Shown here one piece after another: positions 5,742-50,597 of a stretch of DNA of 64,000 bases. The stretch comes from Longimicrobiales bacterium (GTDB lineage: Bacteria > Gemmatimonadota > Gemmatimonadetes > Longimicrobiales > Gaopeijiaceae), in the NCBI GenBank assembly GCA_965116905.1, contig OZ220732.1, forward strand, positions 2,336,001-2,400,000, given 5' to 3'. The position numbers and the translations under genes were made by a program. Position 1 is the stretch's first letter. Every line of letters starts with the position of its first letter. The notes below the pieces were generated by a model that had not been told where the DNA came from, did not search any database, and was given only the letters and a program-made list of their open reading frames with translations.

Positions 5742-6740
5742 ATGAGTGTACACGATTCAGGGCTCGAACCCCACGAAACTGAGTGTCGGCGGCTGGGCGT
5801 CCTCACTCCAGCTGAAATCCGGGCGCTACGTAAGGATTACGACATGTCCCGTGCCGAGTTTGCGCGGGTCACCGGCTTCGGGGAAGCCACCCTGGCCCGC
5901 TGGGAACGTGGCGAGGTGATTCAGAACACGTCCAATGACAGCTTCCTGAGAATGCTGATGGACAGGGACGCCATGAAGAGCCTGTCTCGCATGACCCAAT
6001 ACGAGGACAAACTGGGGCGCGAGTTCAGCATGATCTTTCACAGCCTGAACAACGACTGGGCCTCGGCCCTCGTGAGGTACAAGGAGTTCCGGGAACTGTT
6101 CGGTACCGCGGAGCGGGTCAAGCTCCTGAACGCGATTGGTGGCGGGTTGTTCTGGGATGTTCAGCAGGTGTTCTGGAGCGACTTGATGTTGCGCTTGACG
6201 AGATTGACCGATCCTCCGAAGAGCGCTGGCAAGGACAACCTGACGGTCCAAAGGCTCCCGGGTCTGTGTGAGGACTCGGATCTGAGAGAGGAAATCGCGG
6301 GCCTTGTCCGCGAAGCGGTTGCTGCAACAGCGTTTGCTCGCGATTGGCGAAACCGGCGCATCGGTCATGCGGACCTGGCTCGGGCGATTGATCCATGCCC
6401 GGAGCCGCTGACGGAGGCCACGCTGCCGAAGGCGAAGGCAGCGCTTGATGCGGTCCACAAGGTGTTGGACACAATCAGCGTGCGACTACTTCACACGGGC
6501 ATCGTAAACGTGGTGGTCACTCGACCTCGAGCCCGCGCGTTCATTGCGTACGTCAGCCAGCTGATCGGAGCGGTGCAATGCGTGGACTCGATCATGGACC
6601 CGAGTGGTCAAAAGCCGGTCACGGACCGAGCAGCAGCGGAGACTTTCCTGCGGAAGCTCCAATGCCGGCCCACCTGGCAGAATACGAAGCAGGTTTTCGA
6701 GCTGCGGCAGGCGGCTCGGCGTTTTCCAATGACACCGTGA
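5742..6740 (+). CDS. MqsA-type HTH fused to AbiU2-like HEPN domain
   Basis: LTPAEIRALRK...SRAEFARVTGFGEATLARWERG (XRE HTH), followed in frame by RLTDP...KDNLT...RDWRNRRIGH (HEPN Rx4-6H). Confidence 0.7.
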   Translation: MSVHDSGLEPHETECRRLGVLTPAEIRALRKDYDMSRAEFARVTGFGEATLARWERGEVIQNTSNDSFLRMLMDRDAMKSLSRMTQYEDKLGREFSMIFHSLNNDWASALVRYKEFRELFGTAERVKLLNAIGGGLFWDVQQVFWSDLMLRLTRLTDPPKSAGKDNLTVQRLPGLCEDSDLREEIAGLVREAVAATAFARDWRNRRIGHADLARAIDPCPEPLTEATLPKAKAALDAVHKVLDTISVRLLHTGIVNVVVTRPRARAFIAYVSQLIGAVQCVDSIMDPSGQKPVTDRAAAETFLRKLQCRPTWQNTKQVFELRQAARRFPMTP

Positions 6741-6812
6741 GCGTAGCCTGGATGCCAGGTGTCCATCCGACCATCGGCACCGGCCCCCGCTGGTCACGGA
6801 GGAGGGCTCGCG

Positions 6813-6828
6813 CGTTTCAGCTGAAACG
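6813..6828. promoter_or_regulatory. Perfect 16-bp palindrome CGTTTCAGCTGAAACG (parS-like), copy 1, intergenic
   Basis: Read directly; recurs at 42565 and 45545. Function inferred. Confidence 0.6.
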
Positions 6829-6848
6829 TCTCGTCCAGTTACATGCAC

Positions 6849-8624
6849 CTAATCCCACCCCACCTGCCCCTGTCCCCCCGCCGACTCCACCCGAATCATC
6901 AGGATGTCGATGTCGTGGTACTGCTGGTGGCGGATCGATGACGCGTAGTGCCGCAACAGCCGCAGCGGTATCTCGGCCTCCGCGGGGACGCTGACCGCCG
7001 CCTCGCTGAGCATCGCCAACTGATCCTCGATGTTGGTCTCGTCCGTGGTCGCGATGAACTCCAGATCGGCGGCCTTCCCGTCGGCGCGGGCGATCAGCAG
7101 CAGGCGCCGGTCGCGGTCCGCCGCCTCTGCGTCGTCACCTGTCAGGATGTGCATCGTCTCTTCACCCACGGCGCGCAGCCGCGTCTCCATCTCGTCCCCC
7201 CAGCCCTTCCGTCGGGCGGCGAAATCGGCGAGGAACGCGTCGACTTCGGGCCACGTCTCGGCGGTCAGGCGGGTCTTGAGGCGCGCCCGGCCCCCACCGG
7301 CGAACTCCCCGACCATCGTCAGCAGGATCACGGTCAGGCCACCGACGGTCATGCCGTTGCCGAGCAGCTCGCCCCAGGCCCCCGACAGGTACTCCGGGTA
7401 GACCCAGTCGAACTGGAAGGCGATGCCGAGCCAGAACGCGACGCCGACCACGAGGCCCTTTCGGTGGTCCAGTCCTTCCGACAGCAGGATCTTCATCCCG
7501 AAGACGAAGATGACCGCAACGATGATCACGTAGTAGGCCGCGACTACCGGCCCGGGAATCGCGACGAGCAGCGAGACGAATTTGGGGAGGAAGGCGAACA
7601 CGACGAACACGGCACCGACGCAGACTCCGATGCGGCGCGCGGCGACTCCGGTCAGTTCGGCCACGGCGATGCTCATTCCGTAGGTAGTGTTCGGAACGGT
7701 GCCGGCCAGGCCCGACAGAAGATTGCCCACGCCGTCGGCGCCGATTGCGCCCTGAATCGAGCGGAAGTCGATCGCGCGGGGCTTGCGCCACGAGACCCGC
7801 TGAATCGCGATGCTGTCTCCGAGCGTGTCCATCGCGCCCACGAGCGTCACCATGATGAAGGACGGCAGCAGGGCCCAGAACTCCGGCCGGAAGCTGAGGT
7901 CGACCCCGGGATAGGCCAGATCCGGCAGGCCGATCCAGGCGGCCTCGGCAACGGTGGTCATGTCGTAGATGCCGAAGCCCAGGCCTGCGGTCAGGCCCCC
8001 GGCGGCAATACCGATCGCGGGCGCCCACAGCCGCAGCACACCCGAGAAACGTAGCGGGATGAGCAGCGTGACGAGCAGCGTGACGCCTGCTGTCACCGGT
8101 CCGGCGGCCGGATGCGCGCCCGCGGGCACCTCGGCCAGCTTTTGAATGATGAGTGGGGTGAGCGTAATCGGGATGAGAATCAGGACGGTGCCCGCGACCG
8201 TTGGCGTGAAGATCTTCCGCAGCAGCGCCATCCGTGCCGCCAGGACGAACTGAATCAGCGACGAGGCGATGATGAGGGTCGCGAGCATCCCCGGCCCGCC
8301 CTGCTGGATGGCGGACACGCTCACGGCGAGAAACGCGCCGGTGCTTCCCATGACGAGGATGTAGCCGGCCCCGATGCGCCCGAACTTGCGAGCCTGGATG
8401 GCCGTCGTGAGCCCGCTGATGATCAGCGCCGCGAACACCGCCCAGGACAGGTACTCGTCGCTTCCTCCCGCGACGGTGATCATGATCATCGGGGTCAGCA
8501 CGATGCTGGCCAGGCAGATCATTGCGTACTGCACGCCGAGCCCGATGGTGATGGGCAGCGGGGGCCGTTCGTCAGGCTCGTAGCGGACGTCCTGGCGGGC
8601 GTGCGCCGGGCTTGAGCTGCTCAT
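6849..8624 (-). CDS. NCS2 xanthine/uracil permease family protein with soluble C-terminal extension
   Basis: VRYEPDERPP..GVQY start, ADGVGNLLSGLAGTVPNTTY signature, many TMs. ATG 8624 overlaps the upstream TGA (ATGA). Confidence 0.85.
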   Translation of the reverse strand: MSSSSPAHARQDVRYEPDERPPLPITIGLGVQYAMICLASIVLTPMIMITVAGGSDEYLSWAVFAALIISGLTTAIQARKFGRIGAGYILVMGSTGAFLAVSVSAIQQGGPGMLATLIIASSLIQFVLAARMALLRKIFTPTVAGTVLILIPITLTPLIIQKLAEVPAGAHPAAGPVTAGVTLLVTLLIPLRFSGVLRLWAPAIGIAAGGLTAGLGFGIYDMTTVAEAAWIGLPDLAYPGVDLSFRPEFWALLPSFIMVTLVGAMDTLGDSIAIQRVSWRKPRAIDFRSIQGAIGADGVGNLLSGLAGTVPNTTYGMSIAVAELTGVAARRIGVCVGAVFVVFAFLPKFVSLLVAIPGPVVAAYYVIIVAVIFVFGMKILLSEGLDHRKGLVVGVAFWLGIAFQFDWVYPEYLSGAWGELLGNGMTVGGLTVILLTMVGEFAGGGRARLKTRLTAETWPEVDAFLADFAARRKGWGDEMETRLRAVGEETMHILTGDDAEAADRDRRLLLIARADGKAADLEFIATTDETNIEDQLAMLSEAAVSVPAEAEIPLRLLRHYASSIRHQQYHDIDILMIRVESAGGQGQVGWD

Positions 8625-10111
8625 CCGGGGCGCCACAACTCGGGGTGAGTCTCCAGCCTGTCCACCGCTTCCCGCAGCACTTCAAGCGCCAGTTCGATGG
8701 TGTCGAGGTGAGTGCGAAACGCGAGAGCCGCCATCCGCAACATGAACGTGTCCCCGACGGTTGTGGAGGACATGAAGACGCGGCCGTCGCGGTGCGTCTC
8801 CTCGACGAGTGCCTGGTTGAACGCGTTTGCGCTGCCTGACTCCGGCACCCACCGGAAGGTCACCACGGTGAGATCCAGGTTCGGCCCCACCTCGAATCCG
8901 AGTGACTTGACCTCGCGGTGGAAGTACTTCGCCAGTTCGAGCTTCTCACGCAGGCACGCCCGGAACGGCTCCTCGCCGTGCAGCAGCAGCGGCAGCCAGA
9001 CGCGGAGCGCGCGGAAGTGCTTGGTCAGCTCGGGCGATACGGCGGCGGGCGAACGGCCTCCCCCCTCCGACTCGACCGTGTCCTGCAGGTAGCTGGCGTA
9101 GTAGGCGTGCGCGTCCTGCAGCGCGTCGCGGTTCTGGACCAGGACGGCACCCGTTCCGTACGGCAGGAACATCCCCTTATGGGGGTCGAGGACCACCGAG
9201 TCCGAGCGCTCCAGGCCGGCGAGCGCGGGCCGGAACTCCGGGAGCAGCGCGAAGAAGCCGCCGTACGCCGCGTCGACGTGGAACCACAGGTCCTCCCGCT
9301 CGGCGATGTCGGCGATGCGGTCCAGCGGATCGATCGCGCCCGTGTCGGCGGTGCCGGCCGAGCCGAGGACGAGCCAGGGCCGCAGACCGCGGGCCCGGTC
9401 CGCCGCGACGAGTTCGGAGAGCGAGTCGGGACAGAGGCGGAAGCCGTCGTCCACCGCGACATCGCGCTTTACCGTCTCGCCCATTCCGGCCACGCGGATC
9501 GCCTTGTGCACGCACTGGTGAATGTGGGGCGTGGCGTACACCACGGCCCGCTCGAAATCACGGGCCCGCAGCCCGGCCGCCTCGCGGGCTGCAACGATTG
9601 CGGTCAGGCTCGCGATGGACCCGCCCGAGGCAAGGTTGCCGTCCGCGCTCTCCGGATATCCGACGAGCCGCGCCATCCACTCGAGTACCAGGTCCTCCAT
9701 CTCGACGGATCCGGGCCCCACAAAGCGGACGCCCGCGTATTCGTTCGTTACCGCCGCGAGGTAGTCGGCGAGCGACGAGGCGTAGATTCCGCCCCCGGGG
9801 ATGTAGCCCAGATGGCCCTGGTGGGAAGGCAGGAGCCCCGGCCGCACGACGGACCGGTCGAAGCGGTCGATGAGTTGCTCGATGGGGCGGGTCTCGTGTC
9901 CCAGGTCGAGCCGTCGGAGTTCCGAGACCGCCGACTTGTCGTGGTTGTACGCCGGCGCCTCCGGCAGGGCGCTCAGGAGTTGCTGGGCGTACCCGTGGGC
10001 CGCGCGCATGAGCCGGTCCCGGCCGGCCGAGTCCGGGTCCAGCGACCGCGCCGCCTCCTCCAATTCGAGAATCCGCCTGGACGCTGCCGGGCGGGTCACG
10101 CGCACCGTCAC
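8621..10111 (-). CDS. Group II PLP-dependent decarboxylase (aromatic-L-amino-acid decarboxylase family)
   Basis: Motifs SGGS, AGTADTGAIDPL, WFHVDAAYGG, DPHK (PLP lysine). GTG 10111 overlaps the upstream stop. Confidence 0.88.
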   Translation of the reverse strand: MTVRVTRPAASRRILELEEAARSLDPDSAGRDRLMRAAHGYAQQLLSALPEAPAYNHDKSAVSELRRLDLGHETRPIEQLIDRFDRSVVRPGLLPSHQGHLGYIPGGGIYASSLADYLAAVTNEYAGVRFVGPGSVEMEDLVLEWMARLVGYPESADGNLASGGSIASLTAIVAAREAAGLRARDFERAVVYATPHIHQCVHKAIRVAGMGETVKRDVAVDDGFRLCPDSLSELVAADRARGLRPWLVLGSAGTADTGAIDPLDRIADIAEREDLWFHVDAAYGGFFALLPEFRPALAGLERSDSVVLDPHKGMFLPYGTGAVLVQNRDALQDAHAYYASYLQDTVESEGGGRSPAAVSPELTKHFRALRVWLPLLLHGEEPFRACLREKLELAKYFHREVKSLGFEVGPNLDLTVVTFRWVPESGSANAFNQALVEETHRDGRVFMSSTTVGDTFMLRMAALAFRTHLDTIELALEVLREAVDRLETHPELWRPG

Positions 10112-33647: not shown

Positions 33648-35190
33648 CACCCCCACGTCCGACGAAGAGTCTTCCACAGCGTCTTCGCGCCCGCGCAACA
33701 GTCCGCAAGGTGGCTCACGTGACACGGCCTACCTCGTCCGCCTGGCCGCCGAGGTCGCCAGCAAGTCGAACCGCACGCGGCGACGCTTCCAGAAACAACT
33801 CGCGCGCAACATCGGCGACGCCCTCCACTCCACCGGCACCACAGCCCGGATCCGCGACCGGTGGAGCCGGCTGTTCATCACCATTCCCGCAACGGGCTCA
33901 CCTGCCGCCGACCAGGCCGTATCCGCCGCCGACCGGGCCATGTCCGCCGCCGCCCGCGTGTTCGGCATCAACTCCTTCTCCCGGCTGGACGCGGTGCTCC
34001 CCGCCGACCTCGACTCCATCGTGCAGGTCGGACACGACACCTACCGGGAGGCCGTCACAGGGCGCCGCTACGCCATCGCGGCACGCCGCACCGGCCGCCA
34101 CCCCTTTTCTTCGCGCGACATCGCGGTTGAACTCGGCGCCGCCCTCAACCCCTACGGCACCGTCGACCTGACCACGCCTGAGGTCACCGTCCACGTCGAA
34201 GTGCGCGACCAGCGCACCTATCTCTTCAGCGGCCGCACCGAGGGTCCGGGCGGCCTCCCGCTTGGCGTGCAGGGCCGGGCGGTGTGCCTCATCTCGGGAG
34301 GGTTCGACTCGGCCGTCGCGGCCTGGCTCCTCCTCAAGCGCGGGGTCGCCCTGGACTACGTCTTCTGCAACCTGGCGGGCCCCGCCTTCGAGCGCTCCGT
34401 GATCCAGGTCACCCGGGTGCTGGCCGACCGCTGGAGCTACGGCGACCGCCCGCGCATGCACGTCGTCGACTTCGGAGAGGCGGTCAGCCGGCTGCAGGCC
34501 GAGGTCACGCCCCGCTACTGGCAGGTCGTGCTCAAGCGGCTCATGTACCGCGCCGCCGAAGGCGTGGCAGCCGAGATCGGCGCGGATGCCCTGGTCACCG
34601 GCGAGTCTCTGGGCCAGGTGTCGTCGCAGACACTCCGCAACCTCCGCTCGATCGAGGCCAGCGCGTCCCTGCCGGTGCTCCGGCCGCTCGTGGGTCTCGA
34701 CAAGGAGGAGATCATCCGCATCGCGAAGCGGATCGGGACCGCCGCTCTCTCCGCACGCGTCAAGGAGTACTGCGCGATTCTGGCGGGGAAGCCGGTCACG
34801 GCCGCGAAGGTGTTGGCGGTGGACCGCGAGGAGGCGCCGCTCGACCCCGGCCTGGTCGACCGCGCCGTGGCCGGGCGCAGGGTGCTGGACGTGCGGAAGC
34901 TCGCCGACTCGGACCTGCAGCGCGACTACCTGTGGCTCGATGTCCTCCCGGACGGAGCCCGCGTGATCGACTGCCGCCCCCCACAGCAGGACGACGGTTG
35001 GCGGCATCCCGGCTCGAAGCGGGTGCTGCCGCCCGACTTCCCCGAACTGGCCACGAAACTAAACAAAGATGTTAAGTATGTACTGTTCTGCGACAACGGA
35101 ATCCAGTCTGGACAGCTCGCAAATATTTTGCAGACAGTGGGTTACGAGGCCTACGCGCTGAAGGACGGGACGAAGGCGCTACGGGGATGA
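33637..35190 (+). CDS. thiI: tRNA 4-thiouridine synthase ThiI (THUMP, PP-loop, rhodanese)
   Basis: GPGGLPLGVQG, ISGGFDS, TGESLGQVSSQTL, RPLVGLDKEEI, EYC, C-terminal FCDNGIQS rhodanese cysteine. Confidence 0.92.
   Translation: MRADTPTSDEESSTASSRPRNSPQGGSRDTAYLVRLAAEVASKSNRTRRRFQKQLARNIGDALHSTGTTARIRDRWSRLFITIPATGSPAADQAVSAADRAMSAAARVFGINSFSRLDAVLPADLDSIVQVGHDTYREAVTGRRYAIAARRTGRHPFSSRDIAVELGAALNPYGTVDLTTPEVTVHVEVRDQRTYLFSGRTEGPGGLPLGVQGRAVCLISGGFDSAVAAWLLLKRGVALDYVFCNLAGPAFERSVIQVTRVLADRWSYGDRPRMHVVDFGEAVSRLQAEVTPRYWQVVLKRLMYRAAEGVAAEIGADALVTGESLGQVSSQTLRNLRSIEASASLPVLRPLVGLDKEEIIRIAKRIGTAALSARVKEYCAILAGKPVTAAKVLAVDREEAPLDPGLVDRAVAGRRVLDVRKLADSDLQRDYLWLDVLPDGARVIDCRPPQQDDGWRHPGSKRVLPPDFPELATKLNKDVKYVLFCDNGIQSGQLANILQTVGYEAYALKDGTKALRG
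35058..35077. promoter_or_regulatory. AT-rich palindrome ACTAAACA-AAGA-TGTTAAGT inside thiI (motif B, copy 1)
   Basis: 35055-35079 matches 42575-42599 at 22 of 25 positions. Confidence 0.5.
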
Positions 35191-42300: not shown

Positions 42301-43508
42301 CCCGGATGGCCTCGGCCCCGTCCTCGGCCTCGTCCCCGGCACCGTCCCCCCGGCTCGCCGCCCGCGCGGTCAGCGTGAAGTCGAGCTTCCGGACCCGGAT
42401 GCTCGAACTGGCCGCCGGGCTGGACGACATCATCGCGCTGGGCCGGGGCGATCCGGACTTCGAGACGCCGGCCGCGATCGTGGCGGCGGGCGCGGACGCC
42501 CTGATTGGCGGCTACACGCACTACACGCCTCCGCCGGGTCTCCGCGAACTCCGCGAAGCGATCGCGTTTCAGCTGAAACTTAACAATAATGTTAAGTATT
42601 CGGCCGATCAGGTCATTGTCACCAACGGCGCCCAGGAAGCGCTGCTGATCTCCATCCTCGCGCTGGTCGATCCCGGCGACGAGGTGATCCTCCAGGCCCC
42701 GCGCTTCAACGCCTTCGACTACATGGTGAAGCTGGCGGGCGGCCGAATCGTGGACGTGCCGACGCTCGAAGAGGACGACTACGCCCTCAGGGCCGACGCC
42801 ATCCGCACGGTGCTCACAAAGTGTTCGAAACTGCTTGTGATCGCGAATCCGAACAATCCCACCGGCGGACTGACCCCGCGGGCGGAACTTGAGCGCATCG
42901 CGAAGCTGGCGGTGGAGCACGACCTCGTGGTCATCTCCGACGAGATCTACGAGAAGCTGATCTTCGGCGGGGCCGAGCACGTGAGCCTCGGTGCCCTCGA
43001 CGGCATGGGCGACCGGACCGTGACCGTGAATGGCTTTTCCAAGGCGTACGCGATGACCGGGTGGCGCGTGGGATACCTGGCCGCGCCCGCCTGGATGATG
43101 GAGTCGGCCGTCGAGATCAAGCACACGCTGAGCATCTGCACGCCTCCCGCCCTGCAGCGCGGCGCCCTCGCGGCCCTGGAGAGCGGCGACGCGGCGGTGG
43201 CCTCCATGCGGGCCGAGTACGAGCGGCGGCTCGCTCTCGTGCTGAACCGCCTCGACGACATGGGCATCTCGTACGGGCGCCCGGGCGGCGGGATGTACGT
43301 CTACGCCAACATCTCGAGCACGGGGCTGGACGCCGAGACCTTCTGCCTCGAACTGCTGCGCCGGGGACAGGTCATGGTCTTCCCCGGCACGATGTTCGCG
43401 GACCCGGCCAACCGGCACATCCGCATCACGCTCCTGTCGCCGTTCGAGTCCATGGAGCAGGCGCTGGAGCGCATGAAACGATTCGTTGAGCAGGTGCGCG
43501 GGGCGTGA
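42297..43508 (+). CDS. Class I/II PLP aminotransferase (complete active site)
   Basis: [46 protein letters not shown]. Confidence 0.92.
42565..42599. promoter_or_regulatory. Overlapping intragenic palindromes: CGTTTCAGCTGAAACT (parS-like, copy 2) and ACTTAACA-ATAA-TGTTAAGT (motif B, copy 2)
   Basis: Read directly; strongly AT-rich patch within a high-GC CDS. Confidence 0.6.

Positions 43509-44592: not shown

Positions 44593-44596
<4 letters not shown>
43505..44596 (+). CDS. Gfo/Idh/MocA oxidoreductase
   Basis: [31 protein letters not shown]. Confidence 0.9.
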
Positions 44597-46242
<1,646 letters not shown>

Positions 46243-46309: not shown

Positions 46310-49300
46310 ATGAGGGGTCCGCAGTTTCGTACGGTCGCAGCTGGATTGCTGGCCGGTGTTGCCCTGGCATCCGGCTGCGGCGACGGCGCGACTGTCCCTC
46401 CGCTACTACCACCCGACCCGCCTGGGCCGGCGACGATCACAGTCAGTCCCGCCGCGACCGAGCTCGCTGCATTGCAGGAGACGGTGCAGTTGACTGCCGA
46501 GGTCCGCGACCAGAACGGCCGGATCATGTCCGGGGTCACCGTGGCGTGGGTGAGCACCAGCGTGGGGGTGGCTACGGTGGACGCGGCCGGACTCGTGACG
46601 TCGGTTGCAAATGGTGCCTCTACCATCACCGCGAACGCGGGGGCGGCGACGGGGAGCGCCATGGTAACCGTAGCGCAGGTGGTGAAGGGGATCGAGGTTC
46701 TGCCCTTTCCCGGCAAGGTGTCAGCGGGCGATACACTGCGCCTGACGGCGGAGGCCTGGGACGCGAACGGGTTCACGGTGCCCGGCAGCGAATTCACATG
46801 GTCGTCGAGCGATACCGCCGTCGCCACCGTGGATGGATCGGGACTGGTCCACGGCATTGTCGAGGGCTTGATCACCATCACGGCCACGTCGGCGGGAGTG
46901 CAGGGCGCCGCGCCGATCACGGTAGCCCACCCGGACTGGGGCCCGCTCGCTGCGCTCTACAAGGCCGCGGAGGGTCCGGTCTGGATCGAAGACGATGGCT
47001 GGATGTCGGATCGACCGATCGGCCAATGGCACGGAGTTACTACCGGGCCCGATGGTCACGTCACCGCGCTGGAGCTTGCCAGGAGCAATTTGACCGGGAC
47101 GATTCCGGCGGAACTGGGCCGCCTGTCACACCTTGAGACCCTGAATCTCGAGTGGAATCGGTTGCGGGGGCCGATTCCGCTCGAACTGACCGGGCTGCAC
47201 AACCTCAGGAGCCTGCGCCTGGGCGTCAACCGCCTGACCGGCGAGGTCCCGGCCGAGTTGGCCAACCTGGCGAACCTCGAGGATCTGCGCCTGAACCACA
47301 CGCTCCTCACCGGCCGGATCCCGTCCGAGCTGAGCAACCTGTCCAACCTCACGAGGCTCAGTGTCCAATCGAATGACCTGACCGGCCTGGTTCCTTCCGC
47401 TCTCGTGCGACTCGAACGGCTCCGCTTCTTCCACTTCGCGGACAACGAAGATCTCTGCATCGCCGACGAAACCGATTTCATCGGGTGGCTGGCCCAGCTC
47501 GACGTTGCGCTCGGACCCGTGTGCAACGAAGACGACAGGAAAGCGCTCGTGTCTCTCTACGAGGCCACCGGAGGAAGCGACTGGATCCGTTCCGACGGCT
47601 GGCTGGAAGACGTGCCGGTGCGCGAATGGCACGGTGTGACCACGGATTCGGTGGGACGGGTCCTCGGACTCGATCTGGCCGACAACGCACTTGCGGGTCG
47701 CCTGCCGGAGCTGTTGGCGCCGCTTGCGAGCATGACTTCGCTTGGGCTGGACGGAAACGAGGGACTGACCGGTCCCTTGCCGCTGACGCTGTCCGCGCTG
47801 TCGCTCGAAGCGTTGAGATACCGGAACACGGGCCTTTGTGTCCCCGCCGCCGAGTCGTTTGGCGGGTGGCTCGCGGCCATCCCCTCGCACGAGGGCACCG
47901 AAACCGAGTGTGCGTCCCTGTCGGACCGGGAGACCCTCGAACTCCTGTACGGTGCTGTCGGTGGCGCTGAATGGAAAGACGACGGGAACTGGCTTTCCAG
48001 CCAGCCCCTCGGCGAGTGGACCGGAGTGGAAGCCGACACCGCGGGCCGCGTGGTTGCGCTGCGACTTCCCCGCAACGATCTGGCGGGCCGCATTCCACCC
48101 CAACTGGGCTATCTGGACCAGCTCCGCGAACTGGACCTGTCAGGCAATCGCCTGGAGGGACCGATCCCGGCCCAGCTGGGCGACCTGTCCGGCCTCACGC
48201 TGCTCAATCTCGGCCAGAACGAACTGGAAGGACCGATCTCGCCGCGATTGGGCGATCTGACCAGCCTTTCCCAGCTGCTTCTGTGGGCCAACGAGCTGGA
48301 GGGACCGATCCCACCGGAGCTGGGCAGGCTGACCAACCTGCTCGTGCTGGGACTCGGCATAAACGAACTGGAGGGACCGATTCCGCCGCAGCTGGGCGAC
48401 CTTGCCAACCTCTACTTTCTGTACCTGGACGGGAATCGCCTGGAGGGACCGATCCCGTCGCAGCTCAGGAACCTGTCGCGGTTGCACGAGTTCATCCTGA
48501 ATCGCAATCGGCTGACGGGGTCGATTCCTTCGTGGCTCGGCAGCCTGCCGAACCTGACGCGCATCGGGCTCGGCGAGAACTGGCTGACGGGGCCGATTCC
48601 GCCCGAGCTGGGCAACCTGGCTGGCCTGACCGAGTTGGTCCTCGGTCGCAATTTTCTGTCGGGGTCGATTCCGTCGAGACTGGCCAGCCTCTCCGCATTG
48701 ACGTACCTGGACCTCGGACCGAACAGGCTGACGGGAGGAATCCCATCGGAATTGGGAGCCCTGTCCAGCCTGGAACGCCTCAACCTCAGCGGGAATGAGC
48801 TGGCCGGCAGGATTCCCGCCGAACTCGGTGATCTGGCCGGGTTGCGGTTGCTGTCGATGGCGGGGAACCAGCTGTCCGGTCCACTCCCGTCCGTCCTTGG
48901 GGGACTTACCCGTCTGCGGCGGCTCCACCTGACCGACAATGCCGAAGTGTCCGGGACCCTGCCTTCGAGCCTGACCGCTCTGGGCGAGCTTGAGGAGCTG
49001 GTTCTGACGGGTACCGGTCTGTGCGCTCCCGCGGACACCGCCTTCCAACACTGGCTGTCGGAAGTGAAGGTGGCGCGCGTGCCAGGCTGTGCGGTGGACG
49101 CGGGGTCGGCGGCGTACCTGACGCAGGCGGTGCAGTCGTCCGACTTCCCGGTTCCCCTGATCGCCGGCAGAGCGGCGCTGCTCAGGGTTTTCGTGGTGGC
49201 GTCGCGTCCCGGCAGCGCAGGCATCCCGAGGGTCCGGGCGACCTTCTACCTTGACGGAGTCGAGAGTCATGCGGTCGACATTCCGGGCTCGGGGGCTCCC

Positions 49301-50597
49301 ATCCCGACCGAGATCGAACTCGCGCGGAGCTCGCTGCAGAGTTCGGCCTACGCCCTGATCCCCGGATCGGTGATCCAGCCGGGGTTGGAGATGGTGTTGG
49401 AGATCGATCCCGACGGAACGCTGCCCCCCGAACTGGGCGTGACGAGGCGGATTCCCGAGGAGGGCAGGGCGCCGGTGCAGGTGGAGTCGGTGCCCAGCCT
49501 GGACATGACGGTGATTCCATTCCAATGGGCGCCGAAGCCCGATTCGTGGATTGTCGATATCGCCACAGGCATGGCCGAAAGCCCGCACACCCACGAAATG
49601 CTTGGCGACGTGCGCGCCATGCTCCCGGTGGCCGATATCGACGTGGCAGTCCACGAAGCCGTCCTGACCTCGACGACCAGATCCCTCGACCTGCTTCGCG
49701 AGACGCATCTGATTCGGACGTTGGAAAAAGGGACCGACTACTACCTGGGGATCCTGCCCGAGCACGTTGGCGGGGCCCTGTCAGGTGTCGCGTTCCTCGG
49801 TTTCCGCATTGGCTATTCGGTTGCCGATCCCTTTGTGATCGCGCACGAACTCGGACATAACCTGGGTCTTTATCATGCGCCGTGCGGAGGCGCCGGCGGT
49901 CCGGATCCCGCATTCCCCCGGACAGACGGTTCGATCGGCTCCTGGGGATTCGACTTTCGTGACGGCGGCAGGCTGGTATCGCCGCGGACCCGGGACGTGA
50001 TGTCCTATTGTGGTCCTCCGAACTGGATCAGCGAGTTCAGCTTCACCAAGGCCCTGAACCATCGGCTCGAGGGGGATGGGCGCCGGAGCCCGCTGGCCCG
50101 GACCGCCGCCGGCGCGCCCACGCGCAGTCTGATTCTGTGGGGTGGCGCTGACGAGGACGGGAGTCCGTTTCTGGAGCCCGCGTTCGTGACTGACGCCGCG
50201 CCCAGCGTGCCGCAGTCCGACGGTGACTACCAACTCGTCGGCCGCAGCGCCACCGGCGACGAACTGTTTTCGCTGAGTTTCGACATGCCGGAGCTGGCAG
50301 ACGCGGAGGCGGGGTCGTCTTTCGTCTTCGCGCTGCCGGTGCCGGCCGAGTGGGTGGGCGTACCCGAGAGCATGACAACTATCCGGCCCTGGCGGATCGG
50401 CCACGACCGACCGGACGACCGACCGGCCCATGGCCATCCTGCGCGATTCGGCGAGCGGCGAAGTGCGAGGGGTGCTGCGTGGTGAGGACGCGATGGACGT
50501 GATGCGCATGGCGGCCGAGCCCGTCGGGCCCACCGGTCCGCGTGTGCAGGTATTGTTCAGCCGCGGGATACCTGACGACCGGGACTGGCGGCCCTGA
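46310..50597 (+). CDS. Large lipoprotein: Ig-like (Big_2) x2, plant-type LRR modules, zincin metallopeptidase; apparent +1 frameshift near 50377
   Basis: LASGC lipobox, WSSSDTAVATVD, many LxxNxLxGxIPxxLGxL repeats, HELGHNLGLYH. The annotated frame ends at 50485, but the shifted frame gives LSGPGGS..RPMAILRD..VLFSRGIPD to TGA 50597. Confidence 0.85.

Follow-up and report, generated by a model that had tools for sequence, protein, structure and literature searches.

A dispersed parS-like palindrome associated with mobile DUF222-HNH genes and scarce near the chromosome terminus in a Longimicrobiales bacterium

Introduction

Among the systems closest to the one described here, tens of Noc sites and 24–52 palindromic SlmA sites are recorded in PMC4726725, where both are under-represented at Ter. 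The palindrome examined here, motif 1, resembles the Noc-NBS pair of Bacillus subtilis and Staphylococcus aureus (PMC4726725) in that a ParB-type fold is predicted for its candidate binder, the palindrome is 14–16 bp long, and tens of sites are dispersed and scarce at Ter. Unlike Noc, the candidate has neither the ParB N-terminal CTPase domain nor an identified membrane anchor, and it has a C-terminal HNH nuclease domain and is encoded by a multi-copy mobile gene that carries its own site; the site also differs in sequence and is patchy within the genus. SlmA-SBS of Escherichia coli is likewise a set of dispersed palindromes scarce at Ter (PMC4726725), but SlmA is a TetR protein whereas the candidate combines a predicted ParB fold with HNH. 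Motif 1 matches canonical parS at 12 of 16 bases (12 of 14 in the core) and the same fold is predicted for its binder; it differs from the ParB-parS pair in having a central GC, in not being clustered at the origin, and in being missing from 12 of 36 congeners.

RAYT genes with their REP/REPIN repeats offer a further parallel, being mobile, long-resident nuclease genes with their own palindrome, in which gene and repeat co-vary and abundance tracks the gene (PMC2817692). Tracking of this type was found here too, as DUF222-HNH genes were present in 35 of 35 motif-bearing family genomes vs 9 of 30 motif-free ones and G101 and G257 supply a variant pair, with exceptions at the level of subtype. 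However, RAYT is an IS200/IS605-related tyrosine transposase flanked by inverted REPs, and REPs are extragenic and usually exceed 100 copies (PMC2817692 and PMC3390384), whereas here the protein is DUF222 with an HNH rather than an HUH nuclease, the site is internal to the gene, 13 of 28 sites are coding, and there are as a rule no composite BIME-type arrays. The 13E12/REP13E12 family (DUF222, PF02720) of Actinomycetota has the same Pfam domains, DUF222 and HNH, and is multi-copy and dispersed; PMC13157036 treats 13E12 genes as inversion-mediating repeats or breakpoints and cites damage induction.

By their defining features, the motif 1 system falls outside ParABS, Noc, SlmA and RAYT-REP, and its probable workings come closest to those of a ParB-family site pair whose map resembles that of Noc. 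In literature searches whose coverage ended short of subscription journals and bioRxiv supplements, no paper was found that ascribes a binding site or a ParB-type fold to 13E12/DUF222, or that describes avoidance of the terminus by this family or by sites such as motif 1. Searches for a mention of motif 1 and for a paper on nucleoid occlusion in Gemmatimonadota also returned none.

Results

Motif 1 in the window and in the genome

The window, the whole 64,000-nucleotide stretch analysed, corresponds to positions 2336001–2400000 of genome G000, a single 4.21-Mb contig of 67.7% GC. Closely similar genes occur in records labelled Longimicrobiales/Gemmatimonadota, which points to the placement of this genome. 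Motif 1 is a perfect 16-bp palindrome, CGTTTCAGCTGAAACG, with the exact 14-base core GTTTCAGCTGAAAC. The original prediction had placed three copies in the window and all were found, at 6813–6828 (no mismatch), 42565–42580 (one mismatch) and 45545–45560 (no mismatch), each preceded by the base G. No other match with up to three mismatches was present in the window, and the count of three compares with 0.17 expected and was reached in 0 of 100 shuffles. The relevant features of the window are:

5742–6740, forward strand: gene encoding HTH and HEPN_AbiU2 domains, left neighbour of the first site; accessory, and present without the site in G021
6790–6831, forward strand: 42-bp relic of an A-type DUF222-HNH gene, holding motif 1 and reading LVTEEGSRVSAETS; 90% match to L143 2085–2044
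6813–6828: motif 1, intergenic, perfect 16-bp palindrome between the HTH/HEPN_AbiU2 gene and the 3′ end of the permease gene
6849–8636, reverse strand: xanthine/uracil permease gene, right neighbour; 3′ flank occupied by a complete A-type gene (G005, G107, G020) or by a site-bearing relic (G000, G173, G015)
35054–35081: motif 2 copy inside a ThiI-family gene
42399–43508, forward strand: class I/II aminotransferase gene, host of motif 1 and motif 2
42565–42580: motif 1 (15 of 16 bases), in frame in the aminotransferase gene as AFQLK; ancestral form ISGKLKRD-like; identical codons in 10 of 19 orthologue loci
42574–42601: motif 2 copy translated as LNNNVKY and fused with motif 1; second, imperfect palindrome of consensus CAATACTAAACAATATTGTTTAGTATTG
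44593–46242, forward strand: two-domain oligopeptide ABC ATPase gene, host of motif 1
45545–45560: motif 1 (16 of 16 bases), in frame in the second ATPase domain as AFQLKR; ancestral form SFRLHR-like; in 3 of 19 orthologue loci

Beyond the ABC ATPase gene, window positions 46310–50485 encode a protein of 1391 aa that combines Ig-like domains with leucine-rich repeats and weakly matches M66 peptidase.

The G000 chromosome was found to contain 13 exact 16-mers of motif 1 and nine with one mismatch. The exact core GTTTCAGCTGAAAC occurs 19 times, vs 0.004–0.007 expected under Markov orders 2–6, an enrichment of more than a thousandfold, and is the commonest palindromic 14-mer in the genome, the runner-up having five copies; the claim of a dispersed parS-like site, with a central GC, was thus upheld. 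The enrichment also held against a codon-preserving null, with 10 exact coding copies vs 0.012 expected when the same proteins were recoded by codon usage. At up to one mismatch, 28 sites were counted, 13 coding and 15 intergenic with respect to 3369 genes called with a hexamer model, and the peptides at the 13 coding sites are of AFQLK type or VSAET type.

The central four bases are conserved. Since the flanks of the sites show no relation beyond a preference for pyrimidine at +1, a longer common REP element was rejected. A CRISPR repeat, considered on account of a 66-bp spacing in relatives, was also rejected as these pairs are in-frame duplications inside DUF222 genes, and a structured RNA had no Rfam match within the window. 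In two relatives (L076, and G042 C1 at 3347163–3347190), 14-bp motif copies stand in head-to-tail tandem.

Motif 1, parS and the chromosomal ParB

Two canonical parS sites, TGTTCCACGTGGAACA, were located in G000 at 873973 and 874017, beside parA-parB and the skew minimum. Motif 1 was therefore rejected as the parS of ParABS, given its central GC in place of CG, its dispersal, and this separate true parS pair at 874 kb; its copy nearest to the origin is 181 kb away. All five motif-free congeners examined retain parS, and the ParB recognition segment is nearly identical in motif-free G004.

The extra ParB-CTPase paralogue that the original prediction had led us to look for was not found. G000 has a single ParB_N match and no second ParB/Noc paralogue, and each of 14 out of 14 genomes has exactly one HTH_ParB match above the cut-off, the only further HTH_ParB matches, weak and under the cut-off, being the two A-type DUF222 genes of G000. 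The original interpretation is thus supported in part: the dispersed parS-like site stands and its map shows a Noc/SlmA-type avoidance of the terminus (see below), the chromosome-organising function is a putative one, and the extra paralogue is not supported. The best candidate binder is instead the product of mobile DUF222-HNH genes that lie outside the window; it lacks a CTPase domain and is predicted to contain a DNA-binding domain of ParB type.

DUF222-HNH genes as candidate binders

The two A-type genes of G000 (3587799–3589190 and 1144388–1145761) are 92% identical, and in both motif 1 lies in the reading frame and is translated as RVSAETS. It is missing from the four B-type paralogue loci, three of which are unbroken and use the usual codons for this peptide. 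The A protein matches DUF222 (PF02720; 63.6 bits, cut-off 24.4) and a C-terminal HNH domain (31.8 bits, cut-off 21.4), the His, Asn and Cys positions of the latter being invariant in 59 aligned sequences (58 of 120 listed homologues and one paralogue).

A structural model of the A protein (mean pLDDT 67.6, above 85 in the folded cores, low confidence at residues 1–20) matched the DNA-binding domains of ParB, Spo0J and KorB over residues 38–150 and HNH domains over residues ~301–387. The best VIA matches were the ParB DNA-binding domain 6s6h (Z 9.0, rmsd 7.4, 114 aligned), Spo0J 1vz0 (Z 7.7, rmsd 2.5, 90 aligned) and KorB (Z 7.0, rmsd 6.7), where Z of 7–9 is middling for helical domains. For the N-terminal half alone (207 residues, pLDDT 89.1), Noc and ParB chains ranked first with probability 1.00 and E of 0.017 or higher; no Foldseek match reached E 0.001. 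Likeness to ParB at the sequence level is weak (Pfam HTH_ParB E 0.016, under the cut-off; hhalign probability 0.45). In a pairwise alignment, the invariant R111 aligns with the Arg of the ParB GHxR and S108 with its Gly. ParB R204 is described as a conserved contact, with Ser allowed at position 201 in parS-type variants, in PMC7383237, and the alignment suggests that the invariant DUF222 Arg may be equivalent to R204 of that study. The A protein has no CTPase domain, and neither a membrane anchor nor an FtsZ-binding part was identified in it.

In the tree, the A-type proteins of one other genus cluster separately, but their genes lie at differing loci. The A-type genes are long-resident and mobile, and have no fixed locus. 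Their relics, and tandem duplications of 46–66 bp, end just past the site. A sequence CCGAACATTTCCCGAAC (GAAC-N7-GAAC) was found ~75 bp upstream of both A-type genes in G000 (3587721 and 1145839), with related sequences in G107 and G020. We take this to be a possible SOS-type damage-response box; none was evident upstream of recA or lexA in G000.

The B-type units in G000 (319354–321101, 633637–638237, 1011079–1013056 and 4178639–4180574) are bounded by 37-bp terminal inverted repeats. These units hold their own parS-like site in the terminal repeats and are insertion-sequence-like, with no transposase seen except the HNH protein, and one of them is interrupted by two inserted genes. The idea of a conserved cut box, CATG/CCCAT, at a fixed distance from the site was rejected, as the box occurs only in gene-derived copies and at B-type ends.

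The relic beside the permease gene

The flanks of the 6790–6831 relic match L143 at 3049–2961 and 1412–1382. As G005 has a whole A-type gene at this position in the same orientation, ~880 bp before and 630 bp after the 42-bp piece are missing in G000. Among 26 permease orthologue loci, the permease is followed by a complete gene in three, by a site-bearing relic in two more and by the site without a clear relic in another two; the remainder have none or too little flank. The site lies in frame within the gene, the loci of the gene shift between relatives, and sites outlast deletion of the gene around them. The HTH and HEPN_AbiU2 gene at 5742–6740 is a possible defence gene at a variable spot beside the permease.

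Sites written into host genes

The original prediction also noted that both coding copies in the window read AFQLK with rare TTT and AAA codons, and this was borne out: TTT makes up 11.7% of Phe codons and AAA 9.1% of Lys codons in G000. Six of seven FQLK peptides in the called G000 proteome are written exactly as TTTCAGCTGAAA. The differing reading given for the paralogous N-terminal ATPase domain of the same gene was reproduced.

Ten of 19 aminotransferase orthologues have GCG TTT CAG CTG AAA CT(T/A) AAC AA(T/C) AAT GTT and the other nine have ISGKLKRDNGLDY-like sequence, intermediates being absent among the 19. The ABC ATPase site is present in 3 of 19 orthologues, the remainder being SFRLHR-like. 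A FAD-dependent oxidoreductase gene that lies outside the window carries the site at 22 of 25 loci in motif-bearing genomes and at 0 of 3 in motif-free genomes, some of which the orthologue cut-off may have dropped (3 of 12 retrieved). The rare TTT and AAA codons are kept in 10 of 10, 3 of 3 and 22 of 22 FQLK rows of these three host genes; among other conserved columns, no Lys column and only one Phe column, which abuts the site, has AAA or TTT in the majority. None of the orthologues without the site retains AFQLK (9 of 19 aminotransferase, 16 of 19 ABC ATPase and 6 of 28 oxidoreductase loci). The original prediction is thus not refuted by its own test.

These orthologue rows and the kept rare codons indicate that the coding sites are derived, arose where the sequence already matched about half of the motif and are maintained as DNA sequence, supporting the earlier suggestion that the proteins accommodate a DNA site. 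The sites replaced near-matching host codons and keep rare codons across species.

Distribution of the motif, the genes and the site variants

In a first set of 24 congeners, 17 had 5–23 motif copies and seven had none. In a draw across the phylum, the motif was found in 31 of 301 genomes, mostly in the family of G000 (22 of 48) and in one family of another order (5 of 23). Among 65 family genomes, 35 have both motif and DUF222-HNH gene, none has the motif alone, nine have the gene alone and 21 have neither; the motif-free family genomes tend to be smaller. By a hand tally, the A-type gene is present in 19 of 24 motif-bearing vs 0 of 12 motif-free congeners. The other five motif-bearing congeners gave only B-type genes yet have 6–14 exact sites each, which counts against an A-type binder; these are G009 (a single contig with six exact sites), G262 (four contigs) and the fragmented G013, G024 and G242.

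In public GTDB contigs, at least 122 loci have the 16-mer, though many single matches may be chance, and 26 of those listed have DUF222-HNH homology within 300 bp, including, among the matches listed, records from Acidobacteriota, Gammaproteobacteria, Acidimicrobiia and Myxococcales. Of five genomes examined from outside Gemmatimonadota, four have 4–8 exact copies.

Of the 30 best DUF222-HNH loci of relatives, 25 carry motif 1 or a one-base variant and two carry another palindrome; the three without any palindrome are one partial A-type and two B-type loci. G101, from another order, has the variant CGTTCCCGCGGGAACG in and before its gene and in 42 exact dispersed copies, and lacks motif 1, while G000 lacks CGTTCCCGCGGGAACG. 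In 20 of the 42 copies that were inspected, only 16–32 bases are common with the gene, and three overlap a protein match. G257 has five copies of CGTTCCCGCGGGAACG but a nearly A-type recognition segment, a mismatch of protein and site such that no simple residue code for the site variants was seen. A third variant, GTTTCCGCGGAAAC, is largely confined to the genes that carry it, and a fourth, in the 37-bp terminal inverted repeats of B-type units, is not dispersed.

Position relative to the terminus

A canonical dif, ATGTCGCATAA TATGTA TTATGTAAAGT, was located in G000 at 2929977 on the reverse strand, near the skew maximum at 2932715, and similar single dif sites were found in four of five relatives. 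The motif 1 copies nearest to dif in G000 are 548 and 659 kb away, and the nearest variant sites in G101 are at 290 and 309 kb.

Mapping relative to origin and terminus, as the original prediction had proposed, placed the sites along both arms with the terminus avoided. Over 11 chromosomes, with exact sites less than 20 kb apart merged and ter set by dif in five chromosomes and by the point opposite parS/parB in six, only 1 of the 129 site clusters was no farther than 280 kb from ter, vs 16.9 expected; this radius was picked after the data had been seen, and 8 of the 11 chromosomes are in or near one genus with some orthologous sites in common, so that as kin they are not independent. A rotation test gave a combined Fisher p of 9e-5, and p of 7e-4 for G000, G122 and G101 alone, which stand for three lineages. 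The set includes G043 C1, the largest contig of a bigger assembly, and three rounded lengths, and it excludes G021, G329 and G181, which are multi-contig or have one site. One site in G107, 115 kb from dif, counts against avoidance.

The gap in G000 alone is not decisive because other words among ~100,000 are equally depleted. None of the controls was depleted in this gap: it contains 58 of 214 repeat blocks vs 61 expected and 82 of 248 AT-rich palindromes vs 71 expected, and intergenic DNA and GC are not reduced in it either. A matS-like terminus word as the cause of the gap was rejected, the best p of 3e-5 among 122,618 words being at chance level. DUF222 loci of all types are likewise missing within 400 kb of ter (0 of 54 vs 10.0 expected). 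The sites and the DUF222 genes thus both avoid dif. As B-type genes, whose own site is not dispersed, avoid ter too, the avoidance could be due to harm and not to a function in the host.

Motif 2 and other repeats

Motif 2 has 24 copies in G000, with a cluster at 2204127–2279247 and copies at 1144369, 1145881, 3587611, 3589182 and 3701283. Copies of it border both A-type genes, some overlap stop codons or lie across coding sequence, and tandem copies occur at 42–52 bp. The strict pattern was found in 10 of 62 genomes, a single clade made up of exactly the 10 congeners that have the aminotransferase patch. Motif 2 was rejected as a Xer dif because the true dif is at 2929977 and motif 2 has 24 copies and other arms; one copy is 135 kb from dif.

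A 39-bp composite of motif 1 and motif 2 in the aminotransferase gene (window 42564–42602) recurs with 95% identity in intergenic DNA 1.3 Mb away (G000 3701274–3701312). A conserved cassette of motif 2, motif 1 and motif 2 with 42-bp spacing follows a beta-lactamase-fold gene at G000 2247545–2247657 and is also seen in L019 and L024. A scan for the XerD arm revealed an AT-rich repeat, TAAACATTACATTATGTAAA, at G000 448576, 958426, 1363450, 1496515 and 2152477 (reverse strand), possibly the operator of a regulator.

Discussion

The pairing of gene and site, together with the predicted fold, suggests that motif 1 is likely the docking site of the predicted ParB-type HTH domain of the mobile A-type DUF222-HNH nuclease, bound as a dimer. 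Such a dimer would read the 14–16-bp palindrome through the ParB-type domain, and the intact HNH domain could nick nearby, aiding movement of the gene and seeding of sites, perhaps also by conversion of half-sites. Once bound, the protein may cause harm or be undesirable on the DNA that segregates last, at the site of division, and be of use in other places, for example if it holds the septum or FtsK/Xer steps away from arms that have yet to segregate, in which case the host would retain sites on both arms and leave the terminus free as a mark resembling nucleoid occlusion. We give an even chance to this chain as a whole, in which the docking site of a nuclease has been co-opted as a Noc-like mark of the arms.

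With the same binder, the sites could instead be selfish, that is, footprints of the mobile nuclease that arose from gene relics and from nick-triggered repair mirroring a half-site, and that are re-perfected likewise, the terminus being avoided only because breaks or roadblocks there are lethal. This account is possible but doubtful. The intact HNH domain and the shifting loci speak for it, relics and 46–66-bp tandem duplications do terminate just beyond the site, and the new left arm of the aminotransferase site mirrors a right half already present in G204 (AAG CTG AAA CGC); that B-type genes with terminal inverted repeats avoid ter as well, and that genome-specific site variants track the variant of the resident gene, also fit. 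It sits poorly, however, with sites that cost amino-acid changes in host enzymes and that have stayed the same at 22 of the 25 oxidoreductase loci from motif-bearing genomes, some of which have no A-type gene that could be found. A clear gene flank (22 of 30 bases) was seen at only 1 of 27 G000 sites outside the genes, with a few more at 15 of 30, and nine one-mismatch sites persist and have not been purged.

It is unlikely that a host protein, either the chromosomal ParB or an SlmA-like factor, binds motif 1 and that the DUF222-HNH genes merely carry a host site. The 12 of 14 core bases in common with parS and the persistence of sites in G009 and G262 without an A-type gene speak for a host binder, and motif 2, which also flanks A-type genes in one clade, indicates that host sites can gather on such genes. 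Against this, motif 1 lies in DUF222-HNH genes of several unrelated phyla, the dispersed site of G101 is the variant of its own gene, the ParB recognition segment is nearly the same in a genome without the motif, and no further ParB-type HTH besides the DUF222 genes was found in a screen limited to ParB-type domains. A REP-like or terminator-like hairpin in RNA or single-stranded DNA, a transcription-factor operator, or chance is very improbable and largely refuted. Many intergenic copies do lie directly after stop codons or between convergent genes, but 13 of 28 sites are coding, the central four bases, which would form the hairpin loop, are conserved, the flanks are unrelated, the window has no Rfam match, the enrichment exceeds a thousandfold, and the neighbouring genes have no common pathway.

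Returning to a DUF222-HNH binder, the papers searched give no accepted mechanism for the abundant DUF222-HNH (13E12) genes, and a cognate site makes binding, nicking and mobility testable. The natural gene and site variants, of which there are at least four, form a panel for ParB-family specificity. The sites also illustrate DNA-level selection that rewrites enzyme sequence. Two different site sequences, each in its own order, avoid ter in the manner of Noc and SlmA sites, which invites the question of how division is placed in Gemmatimonadota. It is conceivable, though we propose it only tentatively, that a mobile ParB-fold/HNH family, seeding its sites even over host codons, has been co-opted repeatedly with differing sites as a third nucleoid-occlusion or arm-marking system. 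As neither MinC nor Noc was found in G000, the co-option reading, if true, would provide both a mechanism for DUF222/13E12 proteins and a candidate division-placement factor for Gemmatimonadota.
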